Source of the DNA: Candidatus Omnitrophota bacterium
GTDB lineage: Bacteria; Omnitrophota; Gorgyraeia; Zapsychrales; Fredricksoniimonadaceae
Length of the DNA stretch: 35,642 nt
Direction of reading: 5' to 3'
Assembly: GCA_031386565.1 (NCBI GenBank)
Contig: JANNCL010000267.1
Span: forward strand, 1 to 35,642
Shown piece after piece: positions 2,954 through 35,642 of the stretch. The notes under the pieces were generated by a model, which was given only the letters and a program-made list of their open reading frames with translations, was not told where the DNA came from and did not search any database. Each line of letters starts with the position of its first letter. Position 1 is the stretch's first letter. The position numbers and the translations under genes were made by a program.

Positions 2954-5900
2954 ATGCTTCGGAAGCTAGGGTGCCTCTTTTTAACTTTTTTACTATTGCC
3001 ATTTTCCCAACTACAAGCGGATCAAATAGTTCTGCCTGTCCCCGGAACCATGGTACGGCTAAGCCCTGCCTATGAGCCTCCGTTATTAAAAGGTATTAAG
3101 GTCCATCCTGAGAATCCGTTTCGTTTCGAATTCGTTTTGGATCGTGGCGATCAAAAATCTACCGTAGGGGCGGATCGTGATCCGCCCTTTTTAAAAGAAG
3201 AATCCAAAAAATTGATCAAATATTTCCTAGCCGCCTTAACCACCCCCGAAAAAGATCTCTGGGTCAACTTAAGCCCCTACGAAAAAGACCGCATCGTGCC
3301 GGAGAGTTTTGGCCAGACTGAGATGGGCCGCGACCTTTTAGCGCAAGACTATATTTTAAAGCAAATTACGGCAAGTTTGGTTTATCCTGAAGGGGATATT
3401 GGTAAAAGGTTTTGGAAAAAGGTATATGAGTCAGCCGGGAATAAAAATGTTCCTGTTAATACGTTCAATAAAGTATGGATCATGCCTGATAAGGCGGAGG
3501 TGTATGAGAATACAAAGACCGGCACGGCGTATATTGTGCGGTCCAGTCTAAAAGTATTGACTGAGCAAGACTATCTTGCCACCAACAAAAACACAACCGT
3601 AGGGGCCGATCTTGTGTCGGCCCGCCATGCCGGGCGGACACAAGGTCCGCCCCTACGAAATACCGATAATTCCAAGATCATACGTGACCTCGTCATCCCA
3701 GAATTAACCAAAGAAATAAACCAAGGCCAAAACTTCGCCCAATTACGTCAAGTTTACAACAGCCTGATACTTGCCACCTGGTACAAAAAGAAGATCAAAG
3801 ACAGCATCCTCTCACAAGTATATGCCGATAAGAACAAGATCAAAGGCACAGAATACGATCAAAGCATTATTTCCCCTCCCCTTGTGGGAGGGGCCAGGGG
3901 AGGGGTACGATCCCAAGGACAAAAAGACGAGTCCCCCCTCCCTAACCCTCCCCACGATGGGGGAGGGAAGAATGACGTCGAAGCCATCTACGCCCGCTAT
4001 TTACAAGCCTTCAAAAAAGGCGCCTACAATTATATCAAAGATACTGACTTGCCTAACGGCCGGACAGTACCTACGAAATATTTCTCCGGCGGGGCGCGAT
4101 TTGATATGGCGATGATGACGACAACGGAAGAGTTAAGTGATCTACATCTTAGCCAAGCGGTGATCGTTCAGGCAAATATGGAACAAGCCATTTTTAAGGA
4201 ACCTGATGCTGCCATGTCGCATGACGAATCAATGCATAAATTACTTCTTGAGGCTATGTTATGGTATATGAACAGAGATCCTGAGCTGTCTCAACAAATG
4301 GTGGTTGCTCATCATGAGGAAGATCTTGTAAGAAAGTTTTTTCTTGGCAGAAAGGTTTTAAATGTTGCGCCGGAAGAAATTTCTTTTTCGGATATTCTAT
4401 TGGAGCAGAATATCATGACGGATATGAGGCAAAAAGGTATCGATGCAAGGGCTCTAGCTCCCGTAAACAAGCATCCACTTTGGGAAAAAGAAAGTTTCTA
4501 TCAAGGAGTGGTGGAAGATATGCATATGATCAATGCTGACACATTTGATGATATTGTCATTGCTAGATTATTTGATCCTGATTATTGGGAAACTACTGTA
4601 GGGAAGCAATTAGGCCAGACGGTAGAACAAAGAAGGGCTCTTTATCCCAGGATCGCAAAAGAATTAAAACGGGTACTTAGAGATAAAGGCAGGCTTTTTA
4701 TGCTTTCTATGGACGGCAATCCGTATTTATTCGAAGCTTTAAGGCACGAAGGGTTTAAGGTTTTTTCTTTAAAGTTAGATAAGAACAATCAGTTATTTGG
4801 CACGCTTTTAATTAACGACAAAACCATTATAGAATACGGAAATGGTGTTGGAAGAACAGACTTCGGCAGTAATCAAGCCATGCTTTCGCTTGCGGACAGT
4901 ATGGCATGGGGGGATGCGAAGGAAGATGCGGGGGTATATTTCAGGCTTAAGGCATTTTTGGATAAGGATGATCTTAAAGATCTGCAGCAATATGATCCGC
5001 AACAGCGCGCGCAATTGATCGCGCTTTGGTTGAAGGTGCGTTGGGCGAAAGCATTTCCTACGGATCATTGGCGATTATTAGAATCCGTCAGAAGCATCAT
5101 CGTAAATTATTTGTTAAAGAATACGTTATTGACGCACAGGGAACGCAATGAGGGGGCGATAGGGGAATTCGCTAAGTTTGGGATGCCCCGCTTTCAAGCG
5201 GAGATGCTGCTGCATTGGGCAGAGGATGTATTTAATGGCAAGTCGGATGCTCGATTCACGTTCCATCAATGGGCGGTGGCGTCCCATGTAGGGGATGCGC
5301 AAAATGCCGTGGATAAATTTGGTGTCATTGTTGGGCTTAATGAAGAGCAGAAAAATGAATTGATCCAGTATCTTTTAGGACAGAGTGAAAGGCTGTACCG
5401 TGATGCCGAAGAACAACAAAAGTTCGACGCTATTTGGCTGGCAGTCAAGTACAAATGGTCCGAGGATTCTTTTAAGCGGTTCATGAATGAACATATGATG
5501 ACGCATATCGATCCCGAAGCGCGTCAGATCTTAAGGCAGGAGGCTTTGGAAGATCTCCCGATGCAGGGACGGGAGAGGTTATATACCCGTCAACAGATCG
5601 CGGACATGGCCAATGATGCGGGCGTGCTTTGGAATCGTTGGGAGTGGATTAAGGCCAGGCAGCCTGCGATCGAGCGGATGGCGGCGCCGTTTAATGGTGT
5701 TGAAGCAAGAAAACGGGCCATTATTTTTGGAAGATTGCTGGAGCTTAATCTAGCACAACAGAAAGACGTAGAGAGTTATCTTTTAGGCGCCCTCGAAAGG
5801 GTATTTGTTGACAATACAGAGCAGCAAAAATTTGATGCTGTTTGGCTGGCAGTGAAATATGGATGGACAGGAGAATCGCTGGTTCGGTTCGTTCAAAATA

Positions 5901-11888: not shown

Positions 11889-14800
11889 ATGCGGAAAACG
11901 ATATTTAGCCTAGTTTTGGTCAGCTTCTTGATCAGTAACATCAATATTCCTTTGCTTAGGGCAGGGGAAGTTGTTGTGCCCATCATGCCCAAGCCGGGCA
12001 CCATGGTTTCTTTAAGTCCTATCTTTACCCCGGCTTATCTTAAAGGGATTGTTATTCATCCCGACAATGCCCTGCAATTCGACTTTTTGATCAACAAAGG
12101 CGATGGAAATTTAAACACTCAAGAAAAGAATCAGGAATATACTAAACTAGTCAAATACTTCCTGGCGGCACTCACCGTCCCGGATCAAGACCAATGGGTG
12201 AACTTAAGCCCGTATGAAAAAGACCGCATTATTAAAGATGACTTCGGCAAGACCGAAATGGGCCGCGACCTTTTGGGTCAAGATTATTTGTTAAAGCAGA
12301 TCACCTCATCTTTAATGTATCCCGAATCTGGTTTAGGCAAAAATTTCTGGGATAAAGTCTATGCCAAAGCCCAAGAAGAATTTGGCAACACCAATATCCC
12401 CGTCAACACATTCAACAAAGTCTGGATCGTGCCAGATCAAGCCATTGTTTATGAAAGCGGCAATATTGCGTATGTAGGGCGCAGTCATTTGAAAGTGATG
12501 TTGGAAGAAGATTATCTTGCCATCAACAAAAATAAATCCGTAGGGGAGGACCTTGTGTCCTCCCGCCATGCCGGGCCGATACAAGATCGGCCCCTACAAA
12601 ATACCGATCAAGCACAAATAATCCGTGAACTCATCCTCCCCGAATTAGAAAAAGAAGTCAACCAAGGCAAAAATTTCGCCCAATTACGCCAAGTTTTTAG
12701 CGGCATGATCCTAGCCACTTGGTATAAAAAAGCATTGAAAGAATCTTTGTTAGCCAAAATTTACGCAGATAAAAATAAAACTAAAGGAACGGGATATACA
12801 AAAAGCATTCTCAACCGAAGCCAACCTGGGAAACAACCAAACGACATCGAGCTTGTGTACCAGCAATACCTCCAAGCCTTTAAGAAAGGCGTATACAACT
12901 ATATTAAAGAGGACACAGACAAATACACACATCAACCCATTCCCAGAAAATATTTTGCGGGTGGGGTGAATGGCATTCCAAAAAATGTTCTAGAAGTACG
13001 CCAAGGCACAAGCCCGGCAATGACGGCGGAAGTAAACACCCTTGATGCCGCGCAAGTTAGTTTAGATAGTAAAAAAGCAGATGCGGCGATGAATATTCAA
13101 GAAATACAATCTTACAGCCAATGGGTAGTTCGGATATTGACGACCGGTGTACCGTTGACATTTACAACTGTTTCAGCTCAGGCAGCACAATTTCAAGAAT
13201 TTGTATCAACATATCCTTGGTTAGCAACGGGTTCTGCAATAGGGCTGACGGCTGCAACATGGTTTGGGTATTATTTGTGGAGTATGTTTCATACGTTAAA
13301 GGGAATGGGGCGTGCTTATGACCAGAAAATAGTGAGCAAGGAACAATTTCGTGCGTGGCTAGATGAATATCTTCCCACACAAAGCGACGCAATATTGATT
13401 GGCTTATTGAACCACCGACAGATGGCAGTTCGGGAAAAATCTGCGGAAATATTAGTGCGTTTGAAAACTAGAAGGGCTTCTCAAGAAGAGGTGATCCAAG
13501 CATTGTTGGGAAGACTTGGCGATTATGATCCTGTTCATCAGAGGGCATTATTAGGATTGAAGGAATTAGGAGTAAGCCAAGAACTCCTATTGAGCGAATA
13601 TCATGTCATTGTCTGGAATGCAGATAACTCAACATTTATGCGCTTGGGAGGAGACTCCGAACGCTCCTCTTTTGAGTCTGTTAACAAAGCCATCAAATTT
13701 TTTAGTGAAATAGGTGAACAAGGCAGGGATGAATTAGTTGCTATAGGTAAAAATCATCCAAGTGAAGGTGTTCGAAAGCGAGCGGGAGAAATTGTATCCA
13801 GGATAGTATGGGATTATGGGACATGGGGTTCAACTTATACTTTGGATGATGTCGAAATGGCAATAAAAATGTTAGGAAGAATGGGGTCGGTAGGGTTGTA
13901 TGAATTATCCAGAATAAAAGGGGAAGATCTTGACCGCAGGGTTATTGAAATGGCGAAAAATCAAATAGACGCGGCGATGGGGGAGAATTTGAGTTATAAG
14001 GGCAAGGACTTTGAAATCAGCTCGCAAGGACTATTGATTGGCACAATATATTCAATTTATTTTCTTTTACGTGAAAGGGCTATTGCTTCGAAGCATCCAA
14101 CGATTGCATTTGACCTAGATGGAACGATTGCTTTTTGGAACGGGAGTGAATATCTGATAAGACCCGGAATCGAAGAACAAATCCGTAAGCTTAAACAAAG
14201 GGGTTTTCGTATAGTTTTATGGACGTCAGCACCAAGAGAGCATGTTCGTGTTAACTTTATTGAAAAGAATTCTGCAATTGCTAATTTTTTTGATTTAGTT
14301 ATTTCCAGAGAAAGTTTCAGCCCTTTAATAGAAAATGAGCAAGCAATGAAAGGCGTTTATGCAAGATTTATGAAGATTCCAGTAAGTGATTTTATGGAAA
14401 GAATTCATAGAACATATTTTGCGACTAACAATGATTGGGGATTTAAGGATTTTTTGTTGCTGGGATACAAGTTCTTAGTTGATGATACACCGCTCAAGAT
14501 TTTAAAAGGTCAGCCTTATCCTCTAATCCAAGAGTACAAGATGAGGTACATGCAGGCGGGATTTTTCTACACTAATTCTCAAGGAGTGAGTCTGGGTGAC
14601 GATTATCCGATAGGAAATCTAGCTGATACGATTCAAGAAAAAATTGAGCAAGCTGACAAATCATTTGGTGGTGGTACTGATGTTGATGTGGCTGGAAATG
14701 TATTAGATGCGGCGATGAAAGATCCCGGCGGTATTGACATGAACTCCGCTAATTTGGATTTGCAGATTAAGCGTGATGGTAAAGGGGTGCCTTTGCCGCT

Positions 14801-17423: not shown

Positions 17424-17454
17424 CATGGCGGGACGACACAAGGTCGTCCCCTAC
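17424..17454 (+). repeat. Intergenic single REP-like unit (half of the 58-nt element)
   Basis: CATGGC GGGACGAC ACAAG GTCGTCCC CTAC. It has the same spacer fragment, the same ACAAG loop and the same CTAC end as the right half of the in-CDS doublets, with a different but self-complementary stem. Confidence 0.8.
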
Positions 17455-17493: not shown

Positions 17494-17567
17494 TGCCCGG
17501 TGGTGTAAAGGTAGCACACGAGAATTTGGATCTCGTTGTCAAGGTTCGAATCCTTGCTGGGCAACCA
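17494..17567 (+). tRNA. tRNA-Gln (anticodon UUG), CCA encoded
   Basis: Manual cloverleaf. Acceptor TGCCCGG/CTGGGCA. D-arm GTGT-AAAGGTA-GCAC. Anticodon arm CGAGA-ATTTGGA-TCTCG (TTG at positions 34-36). 4-nt variable loop. T-arm CAAGG-TTCGAAT-CCTTG. Discriminator A, then CCA. Confidence 0.9.
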
Positions 17568-28304: not shown

Positions 28305-28391
28305 AATAGTTTAAAATTGATTGTTTGATTTCATTCTTCTTAACATCCCTAAAAAATTCGTTAATCTAGGTATAAATATTTTTTTTGTCAA

Positions 28392-28420
28392 TTGACATGA
28401 CAAACCCCAGCCCTTATAAT
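28392..28420 (+). promoter_or_regulatory. Consensus sigma70 promoter directly abutting the bamA start codon
   Basis: TTGACA (28392-28397), exactly 17 nt, TATAAT (28415-28420). ATG 28427 lies 6 nt after the -10 box and there is no SD. Confidence 0.6.
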
Positions 28421-28426
28421 TCCACC

Positions 28427-30904
28427 ATGCCTAAAAAATCACTCACATACCTATTTATTTTATTGTCCATTTTAATTCTAACTGACGCTAAAACCTCATT
28501 GGCGCAAGAGGTTGCGGCGGAGGCAACGGCGACGCAGGATAATGCGGCCGCAGTGCCGGCGGATACAACTCCGACACAAGATAACGCTCAAAAACCTGCC
28601 TCGGATATGCCGACCATGGAGCTTAAACAGGAAGCCCCATCAGCAGCGGTAAGCATGCCTTCCGAAACAGCACCGATGGCTAAAACAGTCAAGTCGATCG
28701 ATATCATCGGCAATAAATCAATTGGTATCACACAAATTCTAGCTAAGATCAAAACCCGTGTGGGGCAAGATTATGTGGAGAATATCGTCAGCGATGATTT
28801 AAAACGTCTATATAACACCGGTCATTTCTCTGATGTGCAGATCGATCACGAAGATCTTGACGGCGGTTATAAGGTGATCGTGAAACTGAAGGAAAAACCG
28901 ATCATCGAGGAAGTAACGTTCTCGAAATTGAAGTATTACAATAAAAAATTCATCGAAAGCAAGATCAAGACCCGTAAAGACAAGTTCCTGGATAATAAGA
29001 CGTTAAAAGATGATATTAATATCATCGAAGATCTTTATAAGAAAAAGGGTTTGACGCAGGTGAAAGTGGATGTGGAAACGTTCATGGATGATACCACCAA
29101 TAAAGCCAGTTTGCATTTTATCATCCGCGAAGGATTTCGCATGAAGATCAAGCGCATTAATGTCTACGGAAATACTGCGTACCGTGACAACAAGATCATA
29201 AAGACCATGAAATCCCGTCCGGCTTGGTTGTTCAATTCGGGGTTCTTGAAGGAAGAAGACCTTGAAGAGGACATGACCAAGATCCAGGCATTCTATGAAC
29301 AAAATGGTTATATCGATGCCAAAGCGTCATATAAGGTCGATTCGTTGTATAAGGGGTTGGTCAACGTTGATGTGACGGTCGAGGAAGGCAAACGCTATTA
29401 CGTGGGTGTTTTGGCGATGGAAGGTAATGCTATTCTTTCAGAGCTGGATATCAAATCAAAGATCAAGAATTTACGCGAAGGTAATGTTTTTAGCCGGGAG
29501 AAATTACAGGATGATGTCAGCGCGGTACGCGATGCATATTTCGATCATGGGTATATCTCCGCATCCGTGGTCGATGCGACATCCTTTAATGCTGAATCCG
29601 GCCGTGTGGATGTAAAGCTTACCATTAAGGAAGGTAAATTAGCCTATATTGATAAGATCAAGATACAGGGGAATGCGAATACCCGTGATATTGTTATCCG
29701 CCGGGAATTACGTATGTACCCTGGGGATCAATTCGATGGGGCGAAATTACGTAAATCCAAGGAACGCTTGCGTAATTTAGGCTATTTTGAAGATGTGGGT
29801 TATGATATCGAAGACACCGATCAAGAAGACCAAAAAGACTTAGTCGTTCAAGTGAAAGAAGCCAAAACGGGTAGTTTCTCTTTCGGCGGCGGTTATAGTA
29901 CGGTTGATAAATTGGTCGGCTTTATCGAATTGGAACAGAAGAATTTCGATATCGCTAACTGGCCATCCTTTACCGGCGGCGGACAGGATTTACGTATTCG
30001 CGGCGAGATCGGTTCTTCCCGTCAGAACGCGGAATTGAGTTTTACCGAACCTTGGGTGTTTGATTATCCTGTTTCAGCTGGGTTCGACCTGTTCGTGACC
30101 AGTTTAACGAAGGATAGTTCTACCGGTTATGCCTATGATGAGCGTCGTACCGGCGGAGATCTTCGTTTAGGGAAGAGTTTCAACGATAATTTCAATATGG
30201 GCAGTTATTATCGCTTAGAGCAGATCAAGATCAATAACGTTGCTTCCAATGTTTCTGCTGATCTGGCCGCGGAAGAAGGGACCAATGTGGTCAGTTCCAT
30301 CGGCGTGTCTAGCACGAATGATTACCGTGATAGTCCTTTGGCTACGACGAAGGGATTTACTTGGCATAATAGCGCTGATCTGGCCGGCGGTGTTCTTGGC
30401 GGCGATAAGGATTTTTACCGATTGCAAACAGAGGGCAGTTATTATGCTCCTTTTAAATTCAATGAGCTGGTGACCGTCCTTGAAGTTAGTGGAAAAACAG
30501 GCATGGTCAAAGCATACAATAAAACAGCTCGCGTGCCGATCTTTGAACGTTACTTTGCTGGTGGTGCCAATACTATCCGTGGGTACAATGAACGTAAAGT
30601 AGGTCCGCTCGATAGGAATACCAATGATCCTATCGGGGGTGAAGCGATCTTGGTCGGTAGTATGGAATATACCGTTCCGATCATCGAGGTGCTAAAAGCG
30701 GCGGTTTTCTTTGATGCCGGTAACGTGTGGTCGAAGGCCAGCGATTATGCCAGCGGCGGAATCAAGTCCGGAACAGGTTTGGGCCTGCGGGTCAAAACCC
30801 CGATCGGTCCTCTAAAGCTTGATTATGGTATTCCTCTAAGCAAAGAACCAGGTGAAAATAAGAAGAGCGGCAAGTTCTATTTCAGTGTAAGCCGAGGGTT
30901 TTAA
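28427..30904 (+). CDS. bamA: Outer membrane protein assembly factor BamA (Omp85), with Ala/Thr/Pro/Gln-rich linker after the signal peptide
   Basis: Signal peptide MPKKSLTYLFILLSILILTDAKTSLA, POTRA-like repeats (IKSIDIIGN.., IKRINVYGN.., IDKIKIQGN..), and a C-terminal barrel ending ..GKFYFSVSRGF (terminal aromatic residue). Confidence 0.9.
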   Translation: MPKKSLTYLFILLSILILTDAKTSLAQEVAAEATATQDNAAAVPADTTPTQDNAQKPASDMPTMELKQEAPSAAVSMPSETAPMAKTVKSIDIIGNKSIGITQILAKIKTRVGQDYVENIVSDDLKRLYNTGHFSDVQIDHEDLDGGYKVIVKLKEKPIIEEVTFSKLKYYNKKFIESKIKTRKDKFLDNKTLKDDINIIEDLYKKKGLTQVKVDVETFMDDTTNKASLHFIIREGFRMKIKRINVYGNTAYRDNKIIKTMKSRPAWLFNSGFLKEEDLEEDMTKIQAFYEQNGYIDAKASYKVDSLYKGLVNVDVTVEEGKRYYVGVLAMEGNAILSELDIKSKIKNLREGNVFSREKLQDDVSAVRDAYFDHGYISASVVDATSFNAESGRVDVKLTIKEGKLAYIDKIKIQGNANTRDIVIRRELRMYPGDQFDGAKLRKSKERLRNLGYFEDVGYDIEDTDQEDQKDLVVQVKEAKTGSFSFGGGYSTVDKLVGFIELEQKNFDIANWPSFTGGGQDLRIRGEIGSSRQNAELSFTEPWVFDYPVSAGFDLFVTSLTKDSSTGYAYDERRTGGDLRLGKSFNDNFNMGSYYRLEQIKINNVASNVSADLAAEEGTNVVSSIGVSSTNDYRDSPLATTKGFTWHNSADLAGGVLGGDKDFYRLQTEGSYYAPFKFNELVTVLEVSGKTGMVKAYNKTARVPIFERYFAGGANTIRGYNERKVGPLDRNTNDPIGGEAILVGSMEYTVPIIEVLKAAVFFDAGNVWSKASDYASGGIKSGTGLGLRVKTPIGPLKLDYGIPLSKEPGENKKSGKFYFSVSRGF

Positions 30905-35399: not shown

Positions 35400-35642
35400 A
35401 TGCCTCGAAGATTTTTAAGTTTAATCCTATCTATATGTTTATTGCCTTTGCCGCAAGTCTATGCAGCAGAAGGACTTTTAAGCTTGCCTGTGCCTGGGAC
35501 TATGGTACGGCTAAGCCCTGCTTATGAACCGCCACTATTAAAAGGCATTAAAGTTCATCCTGATAATCCGTTTCGTTTCGAGTTCATTTTAGATAAAGGA
35601 AACGAAACGCCCGCCGTAGCCAAAGGCGAAAGCACTTTGGCG
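35400..35642 (+). CDS. Secreted modular protein, paralog 3 (first 81 codons only; runs off the window; absent from the ORF track)
   Basis: My translation from ATG 35400 is MPRRFLSLILSICLLPLPQVYAAEGLLSLPVPGTMVRLSPAYEPPLLKGIKVHPDNPFRFEFILDKGNETPAVAKGESTLA. 36/39 residues are identical to paralog 1 after the signal peptide. The nucleotide differences I checked are mostly synonymous. Confidence 0.85.
   Translation, partial: MPRRFLSLILSICLLPLPQVYAAEGLLSLPVPGTMVRLSPAYEPPLLKGIKVHPDNPFRFEFILDKGNETPAVAKGESTLA

Follow-up and report, generated by a model that had tools for sequence, protein, structure and literature searches.

Two short hairpins that lie in frame within paralogous genes of a Candidatus Omnitrophota genome (GCA_031386565.1) were analyzed: one in paralog 1 (P1; hereafter hairpin 1) and one in paralog 3 (P3), which is cut by the end of the same contig. 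Both are likely in-frame copies of dispersed palindromic repeats of the repetitive extragenic palindromic (REP) class, situated in a disordered loop in the N-module of an expanded protein family. REP-class repeats are small DNA stem-loops that are probably mobile and located mostly between genes. At least five repeat families were found at this loop (site 1) in different paralogs, and these families were also represented outside genes and in two further loops of this module (sites 2 and 3). Although the loops make up only ~0.2-0.4% of a genome, 25-68% of the copies in several families are found there. The window, i.e., the whole stretch of DNA analyzed (JANNCL010000267.1, 35,642 nt), is the entire 35.6-kb contig C209 of a 2.40-Mb genome (344 contigs, 44.8% GC, estimated completeness 90%); the genome is fragmented and several members of the gene family are partial. 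Homologues of these proteins carry the labels Candidatus Omnitrophica or Omnitrophota among the protein matches.

Hairpin 1 had been described in the original prediction as a perfect 8-bp stem closed by a CGTG loop and translated as TVGADRDPP. This was reproduced, and the same nucleotides form equally well a perfect 9-bp stem (78% GC) with a 2-nt loop. When hairpins were folded as DNA and compared with 200 shuffles, hairpin 1 had a z-score of -3.17, and 2 of the 200 shuffles were equally good. The hairpin starts three codons beyond FVLDRGD and is read as T-VGADRDPP-F. It is short and GC-rich, falls within the REP size of 20-40 bp, and has GTAG (3164-3167) directly abutting the stem; as a single stem-loop and not an inverted doublet, it is not a REP doublet forming hairpin (REPIN). 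Its length corresponds exactly to the 24 nt by which P1 exceeds a close paralog with an empty site on contig C168. An identical copy was found at the same codon position in the paralog on C115, with the hairpin region of P1 and C115 being 100% identical and the flanks 81-86%. Exact copies were confined to these two paralogs in this genome, and no further match with up to three mismatches was present in the window (expected number, 0).

A partial copy of hairpin 1 was found at site 1 of the paralog on C180 and a variant, GGGGCGATC, at that of C197. In addition, C310 and C253 have GTAG hairpins outside open frames that agree with hairpin 1 in stem length (9 bp) and loop size (2 nt) and differ from it in stem sequence. 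A hairpin-1-like element, GTAG-GGGCAGATC-AT-GATCTGCCC-C(C)TAC, was identified between genes in two genomes of the same order (G031 and G039); it differs by three mismatches, and its stems are kept by paired changes. The motif GGATCGTG of hairpin 1 recurs in the adjacent DRGD box. An exact match to the 11-mer GTAGCCAAAGG at 30335 on the minus strand, within the open reading frame (ORF) 28385-30904, is probably due to chance. A run of TTTTT directly follows hairpin 1 (3188-3192), in the gene at codon ~79, and resembles a terminator by eye. An internal terminator was regarded as a doubtful interpretation: a terminator scan did not flag the hairpin, perhaps owing to the 2-nt loop, though the T-run is present.

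Site 1 was located in an AlphaFold model of the N-module that was built on 46 paralogs and is of moderate quality (mean predicted local distance difference test score (pLDDT) 72, predicted template modeling score 0.68). As had been suspected, the inserts fall in a predicted structural loop, between a strand (residues 54-63) and a helix (78-96), where pLDDT drops below 50 at residues 70-75. Palindromes at this position proved to be common, with ~20 of the roughly 50-70 family genes carrying one, and belonged to at least five types. In ~40 members, the site-1 segment was 15-21 residues long and did not fold, and a paralog-1-like sub-clade had inserts, nearly all of them strong hairpins. Paralog 2 (P2) represents the former state: its segment (12078-12125) was unstructured (z = -1.0) and comprised 19 residues against 25 in P1, in agreement with the earlier description of an unstructured sequence shorter by six codons. 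Relative to C168, P1 and C115 were longer by 24 nt, C152 and others by 36 nt, and C12, C72, and C139 by 30 nt. The entry points of the different types differed, all lying within ~15 nt. The inserts in intact genes were thus multiples of three, as had been asked of them, and contained no stop codons, although intact genes must satisfy the former rule in any case. One family member (C9:2400-2680) was frame-shifted within an E4 element at site 2, where a C-run has two extra C; its old frame ends at the element's own G-TAG, and the copy is either a pseudogene or an assembly error.

The hairpin of P3 (35619-35641), preceded by GTA (35616-35618), was likewise present as predicted, with a GAAA loop, translation as AVAKGESTL, and a z-score of -2.95. 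The last 103 nt of the window (35540-35642) match exactly the end of contig C196; P3 therefore very probably continues on that contig. On C196, the hairpin was found to go on beyond the window as the inner stem of a two-stem element of ~43 nt, GCCCGCC-GTA-[inner hairpin]-GAA-GGAGGGC, whose outer stem is GCCCGCC/GGAGGGC (z = -3.77; 0 of 200 shuffles equally good). The contig ends inside this element (hereafter R1), and nearly the same ~95 nt also occur in the paralogs on C46 and C34, so the repeat and its conserved flank probably caused the assembly break.

A covariance model built from the two-stem element was searched in 41 genomes, this genome included, and R1 was present in 29 of them, with a maximum of 51 matches per genome and often in clusters of alternating orientation. 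Of the 25 matches obtained for this genome (window 35619-35642 among them), 17 were located outside long frames, with two of these beside tRNA genes, and R1 occupied site 1 in seven genes. The density of R1 in N-module loops was ~7-fold that of the sequence outside long frames (~171 kb; ~7% of this genome), a factor that, like the other enrichments given here, is an upper bound on the number of insertions, as in-gene copies can be multiplied by duplication and conversion. Six of the 16 stem pairs change on both sides, which was reached by none of 500 shuffles. Paired changes in the outer stem include non-synonymous ones, CCC/GGC (Pro, Gly) vs. TCC/GAC (Ser, Asp). Among P3, C46, and C34, identity peaks at 97-100% around the site-1 insert and is 75-85% elsewhere. 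With many copies, mostly outside genes, and compensatory stem changes, the P3 hairpin fits a dispersed REP-like palindromic repeat in the broad sense.

The P3 hairpin is not a GTAG REP, a candidate that was ruled out. The tag consensus of R1 is CGAAGC, and GTA was found in 5 of 7 in-gene copies vs. ~3 of 17 copies outside long frames, where it is a minority variant. The GTAG of P3 is a variant of the GAAG consensus tag, and the P3 hairpin belongs to a repeat family unrelated to that of hairpin 1. The original prediction that a loop of the N-module accumulates palindromes was thus borne out, here by at least five types and elsewhere by 59 of 108 related proteins (see below), whereas its term "GTAG-flanked" holds for hairpin 1 and fails for P3.

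The notion of a single-loop hot spot was right for site 1 but too narrow, as site 1 is only one of three such loops sharing element types (Table 1). Site 2 is the segment after EEDYLAxxKN (P1 residues 213-237) and site 3 comprises residues ~296-339; both behave like site 1, and in the model all three appear as low-confidence loops between secondary-structure elements. E2 occurred at sites 1, 2, and 3, with 31 loci in this genome, of which 11 were in N-modules and 16 lacked an open frame. E4 was found at sites 1 and 2, and the GTAG REP doublet at site 2 of P1, P2, C12, and C180 and at site 3 of C12. Insert types at sites 1 and 2 combined reticulately: hairpin 1 with E1 or E3, R1 with E2 or E3, and type (c) with E1 or E2. 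GC-rich perfect hairpins were concentrated in the N-modules (65 kb in all), which contained 33, and 30 of these fell at one of the three sites; across the 146 kb that make up the rest of these genes, nine were detected, and none was element-like. Each GTAG hairpin at the three sites shared one codon phase. Further, a hairpin-forming site-2 segment encoding RRQPGDMMLTPQGEASCPQAGCQ...APQGN was found in 12 paralogs (e.g., C196:14917-15036 and C115:13223-13341); all 12 loci in this genome were within the family, and related peptides occurred at site 2 in other Omnitrophota.

Table 1. Features of the window and types of site-1 insert; contigs (C) are those of the same genome.
Feature	Position	Strand	Description
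P1	2954-9019	+	2021 aa; signal-peptide-like start, conserved ~400-aa N-module, unique middle, conserved tail (ORF list and translation)
Site-1 loop	3143-3193	+	Codons 64-80, between FVLDRGD strand and KKLIKYFLAAL helix (AlphaFold and paralog length variation)
Hairpin 1	3164-3187	+	REP-type stem-loop of 24 nt with a GTAG tag, GTAG-GGGCGGATC-GT-GATCCGCCC; read in frame as VGADRDPP
Site 2 insert	3599-3656	+	GTAG REP doublet in inverted arrangement, REPIN-like; read in frame as VGADLVSARHAGRTQGPPL; pLDDT <50 at residues 215-230
Site 3 insert	3869-3973	+	Palindromic element of family E2 with a C-tract and a G-tract; read in frame as SPPLVGGARGG...PLPNPPHDGGG; pLDDT <50 at residues 296-339
P2	11889-14906	+	1005 aa; site 1 empty (~12078-12125); REP doublet at site 2 (12540-12597)
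Extragenic REP copy	17424-17454	-	GTAG-GGGACGAC-CTTGT-GTCGTCCC; adjoins tRNA gene 17494-17564
P3, 5' end	35400-35642	+	Cut by contig end
R1 element of P3	35609-35642	+	Truncated by contig end; outer 5' arm GCCCGCC, GTA, inner hairpin GCCAAAGGC-GAAA-GCaCTTTGGC
Site-1 insert type (a)			Hairpin 1: P1, C115, C180; GGGGCGATC variant in C197
Site-1 insert type (b)			Two-stem element R1: P3/C196, C46, C34, C241, C152, C276, C5
Site-1 insert type (c)			CCCTCCC-ACCTGTG-GGGAGGG...: C12, C72, C139
Site-1 insert type (d)			GTAG-AGACGCGAT-TG-ATCGCGTCT: C197, C32
Site-1 insert type (e)			Own hairpin: C333
Site-1 insert type (f)			40-residue element: C221, C94, C265, C312

Inserts at the same loops were also found in other Omnitrophota. 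Among 108 paralog-1-like proteins from many metagenomes, 59 had site-1 inserts and 49 had a site 1 of 13-19 residues, typically DKGDSQLSNDALKDESS. The insert peptides included VIPAKAGIQ, VIARSEATKQS, RHPERSEGS, SLPLVGRAREG, SPSLVKEGDRGS, SSPNASVGDP, and SAEAKRESxLAKEDY. In the DNA of eight such proteins, all seven inserts were palindromic, two of them (L013 and L014) folding weakly and one being an R1 copy, and the empty site did not fold. In paralog-2-like proteins, site 1 stayed at 13-15 residues in all 111 cases and site 2 was hypervariable.

A genome of the same genus (G004; 20 contigs, 39 N-modules) contained 19 copies of the palindrome AGACGCGAT-NN-ATCGCGTCT with up to two mismatches. 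Of these, 13 were in N-module loops, with site 1 accounting for five and site 2 for eight; these two loops of the 39 N-modules make up ~0.2% of that genome. All 13 had the same orientation and the same frame, GTA GAG ACG (VETRFIAS-like), although four of the six frames are open. The unit GTAGAGACGCGATTTATCGCGTCT + CAAACAACAA was found at site 1 and site 2 alike, and many copies shared the 3' tail CAAACAACAA. Identical palindromes occurred in paralogs with only 52-80% protein identity to the query. The same palindrome had eight copies in the genome of the window, two of them at site 1.

These data are consistent with the following course of events. New copies would stem from insertion by a transposase, from the copying of existing repeats, or from both; the inserts may then pass between paralogs by short-patch gene conversion, and they would persist as 8-40 additional disordered residues can be accommodated in the loops. 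The peptides that they encode would be by-products without a function of their own. Tolerance alone is insufficient: because so large a share of the copies lies in so small a part of the genome, recruitment by targeted insertion or by conversion between paralogs must add to it. Gene duplication fails to explain the excess, since similarity among the elements greatly exceeds that among their host genes (P1/C115; P3/C46/C34; G004). The GTAG elements do not vary in orientation or frame, which favors targeting, and the longer shared site-2 flanks in G004 favor conversion. The reading of R1 in two different frames (at two sites) and of E2 in either orientation speaks against selection for the encoded peptides. 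A selected peptide was also considered unlikely in view of the low model confidence for the inserts. A selected function of the hairpin itself is possible, given the paired non-synonymous changes in stems, but is not needed to explain the data, and inserts are missing from many family members.

Several points weigh against repeat insertion as the origin of the hairpins. No insertion event was directly observed. The exact copies of hairpin 1 are restricted to P1 and C115, and its membership in a dispersed family rests on the related, non-identical intergenic copies elsewhere. In-gene copies are not independent, so that enrichment factors overstate insertion counts, and the better conservation of the hairpins relative to flanking codons could also mean selection on structure. 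In addition, GTAG is not the only tetramer that often precedes hairpins (CTAG, 6.5 per 1000 sites; TAGG, 5.2). Finally, all four putative transposases described below score under the curated NCBIfam cut-off; the one with REPs on its flanks is a 98-aa frame truncated at the N-terminus.

A variant of the insertion scenario, which differs from it only in the cause of the hot spot, is that the loops are targeted landing pads carrying a sequence or DNA-structure target recognized by the Y1 transposases that mobilize REPs, with fixed orientation and register, comparable to IS200/IS605-type insertion 3' of a short target on one strand. It would account for the uniform orientation and frame of the 13 in-gene palindromes in G004, for the single codon phase of all GTAG hairpins at the three sites in this genome, and for the presence of identical elements in paralogs with 20-45% protein sequence divergence between their N-modules. 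Offsets in G004 were also near-constant (124-127 nt into the query at site 1 and mostly +20 nt after the query at site 2), and most copies followed ACC or TCC. However, the point of entry into site 1 varies among element types over ~15 nt, the two frames of R1 and the two orientations of E2 do not accord with a fixed register, and conversion between paralogs would explain the longer 3' flank shared at site 2 in G004 just as well. Neither a target-site duplication nor a target motif was definable at these loops. Targeted landing pads are regarded as a tentative possibility, on balance rather unlikely.

Another explanation is that the hairpins are selected cis-acting structures, causing a translational pause ~70 codons in, after the signal peptide emerges, or serving in transcript attenuation or stabilization, or as recombination hot spots. 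The full identity of the hairpins next to codons of 81-86% identity, the paired non-synonymous changes that keep the outer stem of R1, the reticulate combination of site-1 and site-2 inserts among paralogs, and the T-run after hairpin 1 would all be in line with this idea. Against it, inserts are absent from ~40 paralogs here, from 49 of the 108 paralog-1-like proteins elsewhere, and from site 1 of all 111 paralog-2-like proteins; insert types can replace one another, and those found in a genome match the intergenic repeats of that same genome; and the terminator scan was negative for hairpin 1. The nearest neighbor of mosaic genes switches by segment, but the differences amount to a few percent only, and recombination breakpoints at the loops are for that reason not claimed. 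Selection in cis seems improbable as the main cause. Palindromes arising by chance or by template switching in situ in a hypervariable loop, unrelated to dispersed repeats, might be suspected from the in-family restriction of exact hairpin-1 copies and the second occurrence of GGATCGTG in the DRGD box, but are highly implausible in light of the shuffle z-scores (-3 to -3.8), the same element families outside genes and at other loops, R1 in 29 of 41 genomes, the hairpin-1-like copies between genes in G031 and G039, and the unstructured loop in many paralogs.

GTAG was followed by a perfect hairpin of at least 7 bp at 7.3 per 1000 sites, compared with 0.6-2.5 for most tetramers. These GTAG hairpins form families, each with a constant loop but differing stems, and are mostly outside open frames. 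The copy at 17424-17454 represents this repeat class outside genes in the window. REP-type hairpins were observed directly beside tRNA genes in three places (this copy, C313:4331-4379, and C245:160-208), where they may act as terminators or processing sites. A search of the Rfam covariance models against the window and eight copy-bearing loci detected only tRNAs, plus one chance hit far below threshold (mir-492).

Four frames in the genome matched Pfam Y1_Tnp above the cut-off, and the best NCBIfam model was REP-associated tyrosine transposase (RAYT; described in PMC2817692). The frame on C20 sits between inverted GTAG-GGGCCGAC-TTTAT-GTCGGCCC repeats. A RAYT flanked by the hairpin-1 sequence was not found among the four RAYT-like genes, the flanks on C20 being different from hairpin 1; REP families do not all require a cognate RAYT with matching REPs on its flanks (PMC3733652). 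The other three genes (C304:535-1254, C124:4981-5319 on the minus strand, and C187:2233-2832) had long inverted repeats of their own and not GTAG REPs, for example AAATAGGGGTCAACTCCCTATTT / GGAGTTGACCCCTATTTT, which resembles the "TIRYT" arrangement (PMC3733652).

By tblastn, the N-module itself was found in 71 ORF fragments of this genome; these were spread over many contigs, often at their ends, and ~48 were near-complete. Given the signal-peptide-like start, the family apparently consists of secreted proteins. P1 had no match in Pfam, where no model covers the N-module, and a Foldseek search of the PDB with the N-module model gave no match below E = 0.09. Dating of hairpin 1 via orthologues was attempted and failed, as the cargo of P1 had no orthologue in 25 relatives and gave weak partial matches only. 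In G004, N-module genes were nearly all on the plus strand of the 1.34-Mb contig C1 and all on the minus strand of its contigs C2 and C3, perhaps reflecting co-orientation with replication.

In-frame palindromic repeats have been described in other bacteria. Intragenic GTAG-tagged REPs are short GC-rich stem-loops in frame inside genes (Di Nocera et al., 2013, BMC Genomics 14:522; PMC3733652). The elements reported here resemble them in having GTAG 5' of the stem, being in frame, adding few residues, and occurring as singletons and inverted dimers in a genome with RAYT-type Y1 genes. Unlike those REPs, which are scattered over unrelated genes, many of them for DNA repair (PMC3733652), several families here occupy the same three loops of one gene family with roughly 50-70 members per genome. 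Moreover, that survey did not cover the phylum Omnitrophota, to which the many genomes considered here belong, and the P3 element has no GTAG in its consensus. Rickettsia palindromic elements (RPEs) were first described as ~150 bp long and form ten Rickettsia-specific families in many unrelated metabolic genes, about once in each (PMC10969869). They too are palindromic repeats translated in frame in coding genes, and are compatible with the protein fold through their surface position (PMC10969869). Hairpin 1 and the P3 element share in-frame palindromic insertion with RPEs but differ in size (24-43 nt) and host phylum; most of the elements found here are 24-60 nt long (the longest ~100-130 nt), REP-like, and placed at fixed loops of paralogs.

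A comparison with REPIN/RAYT systems gave a mixed picture, in that REP hairpins were present both singly and as inverted doublets and one Y1 gene was flanked by REPs (C20), whereas hairpin 1 is an in-gene singleton, the C20 frame is truncated, and the other three have other inverted repeats. REPINs, an account of which is credited to Bertels and Rainey in 2011, are reportedly extragenic. In-frame REPs are known, and the recurrent loop hot spot appears to be undescribed.

Until now, REPs inserted in frame have been regarded as rare oddities spread over unrelated genes; here, one module has received them repeatedly at the same three loops, from at least five repeat families, and in G004 two thirds of the copies of one family are in these loops. 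The repeats break Omnitrophota assemblies and yield odd peptides, such as VIPAKAGIQ, VGADLVSA, and PLPNPPHKGGG, in predicted proteins. With empty and filled sites side by side, the family offers a natural system for studying the target choice and movement of REPs, the evolution of protein loops, and palindrome-driven gene conversion. It is conceivable, if doubtful, that the three loops are dedicated landing pads targeted by Y1 transposases or hold hairpins selected in cis, with selfish palindromes and their host family co-evolving across Omnitrophota. If this were true, hairpins in N-module loops could pause translation once the signal peptide has emerged or, as recombination breakpoints, diversify an apparently secreted family of roughly 40-70 genes per genome.

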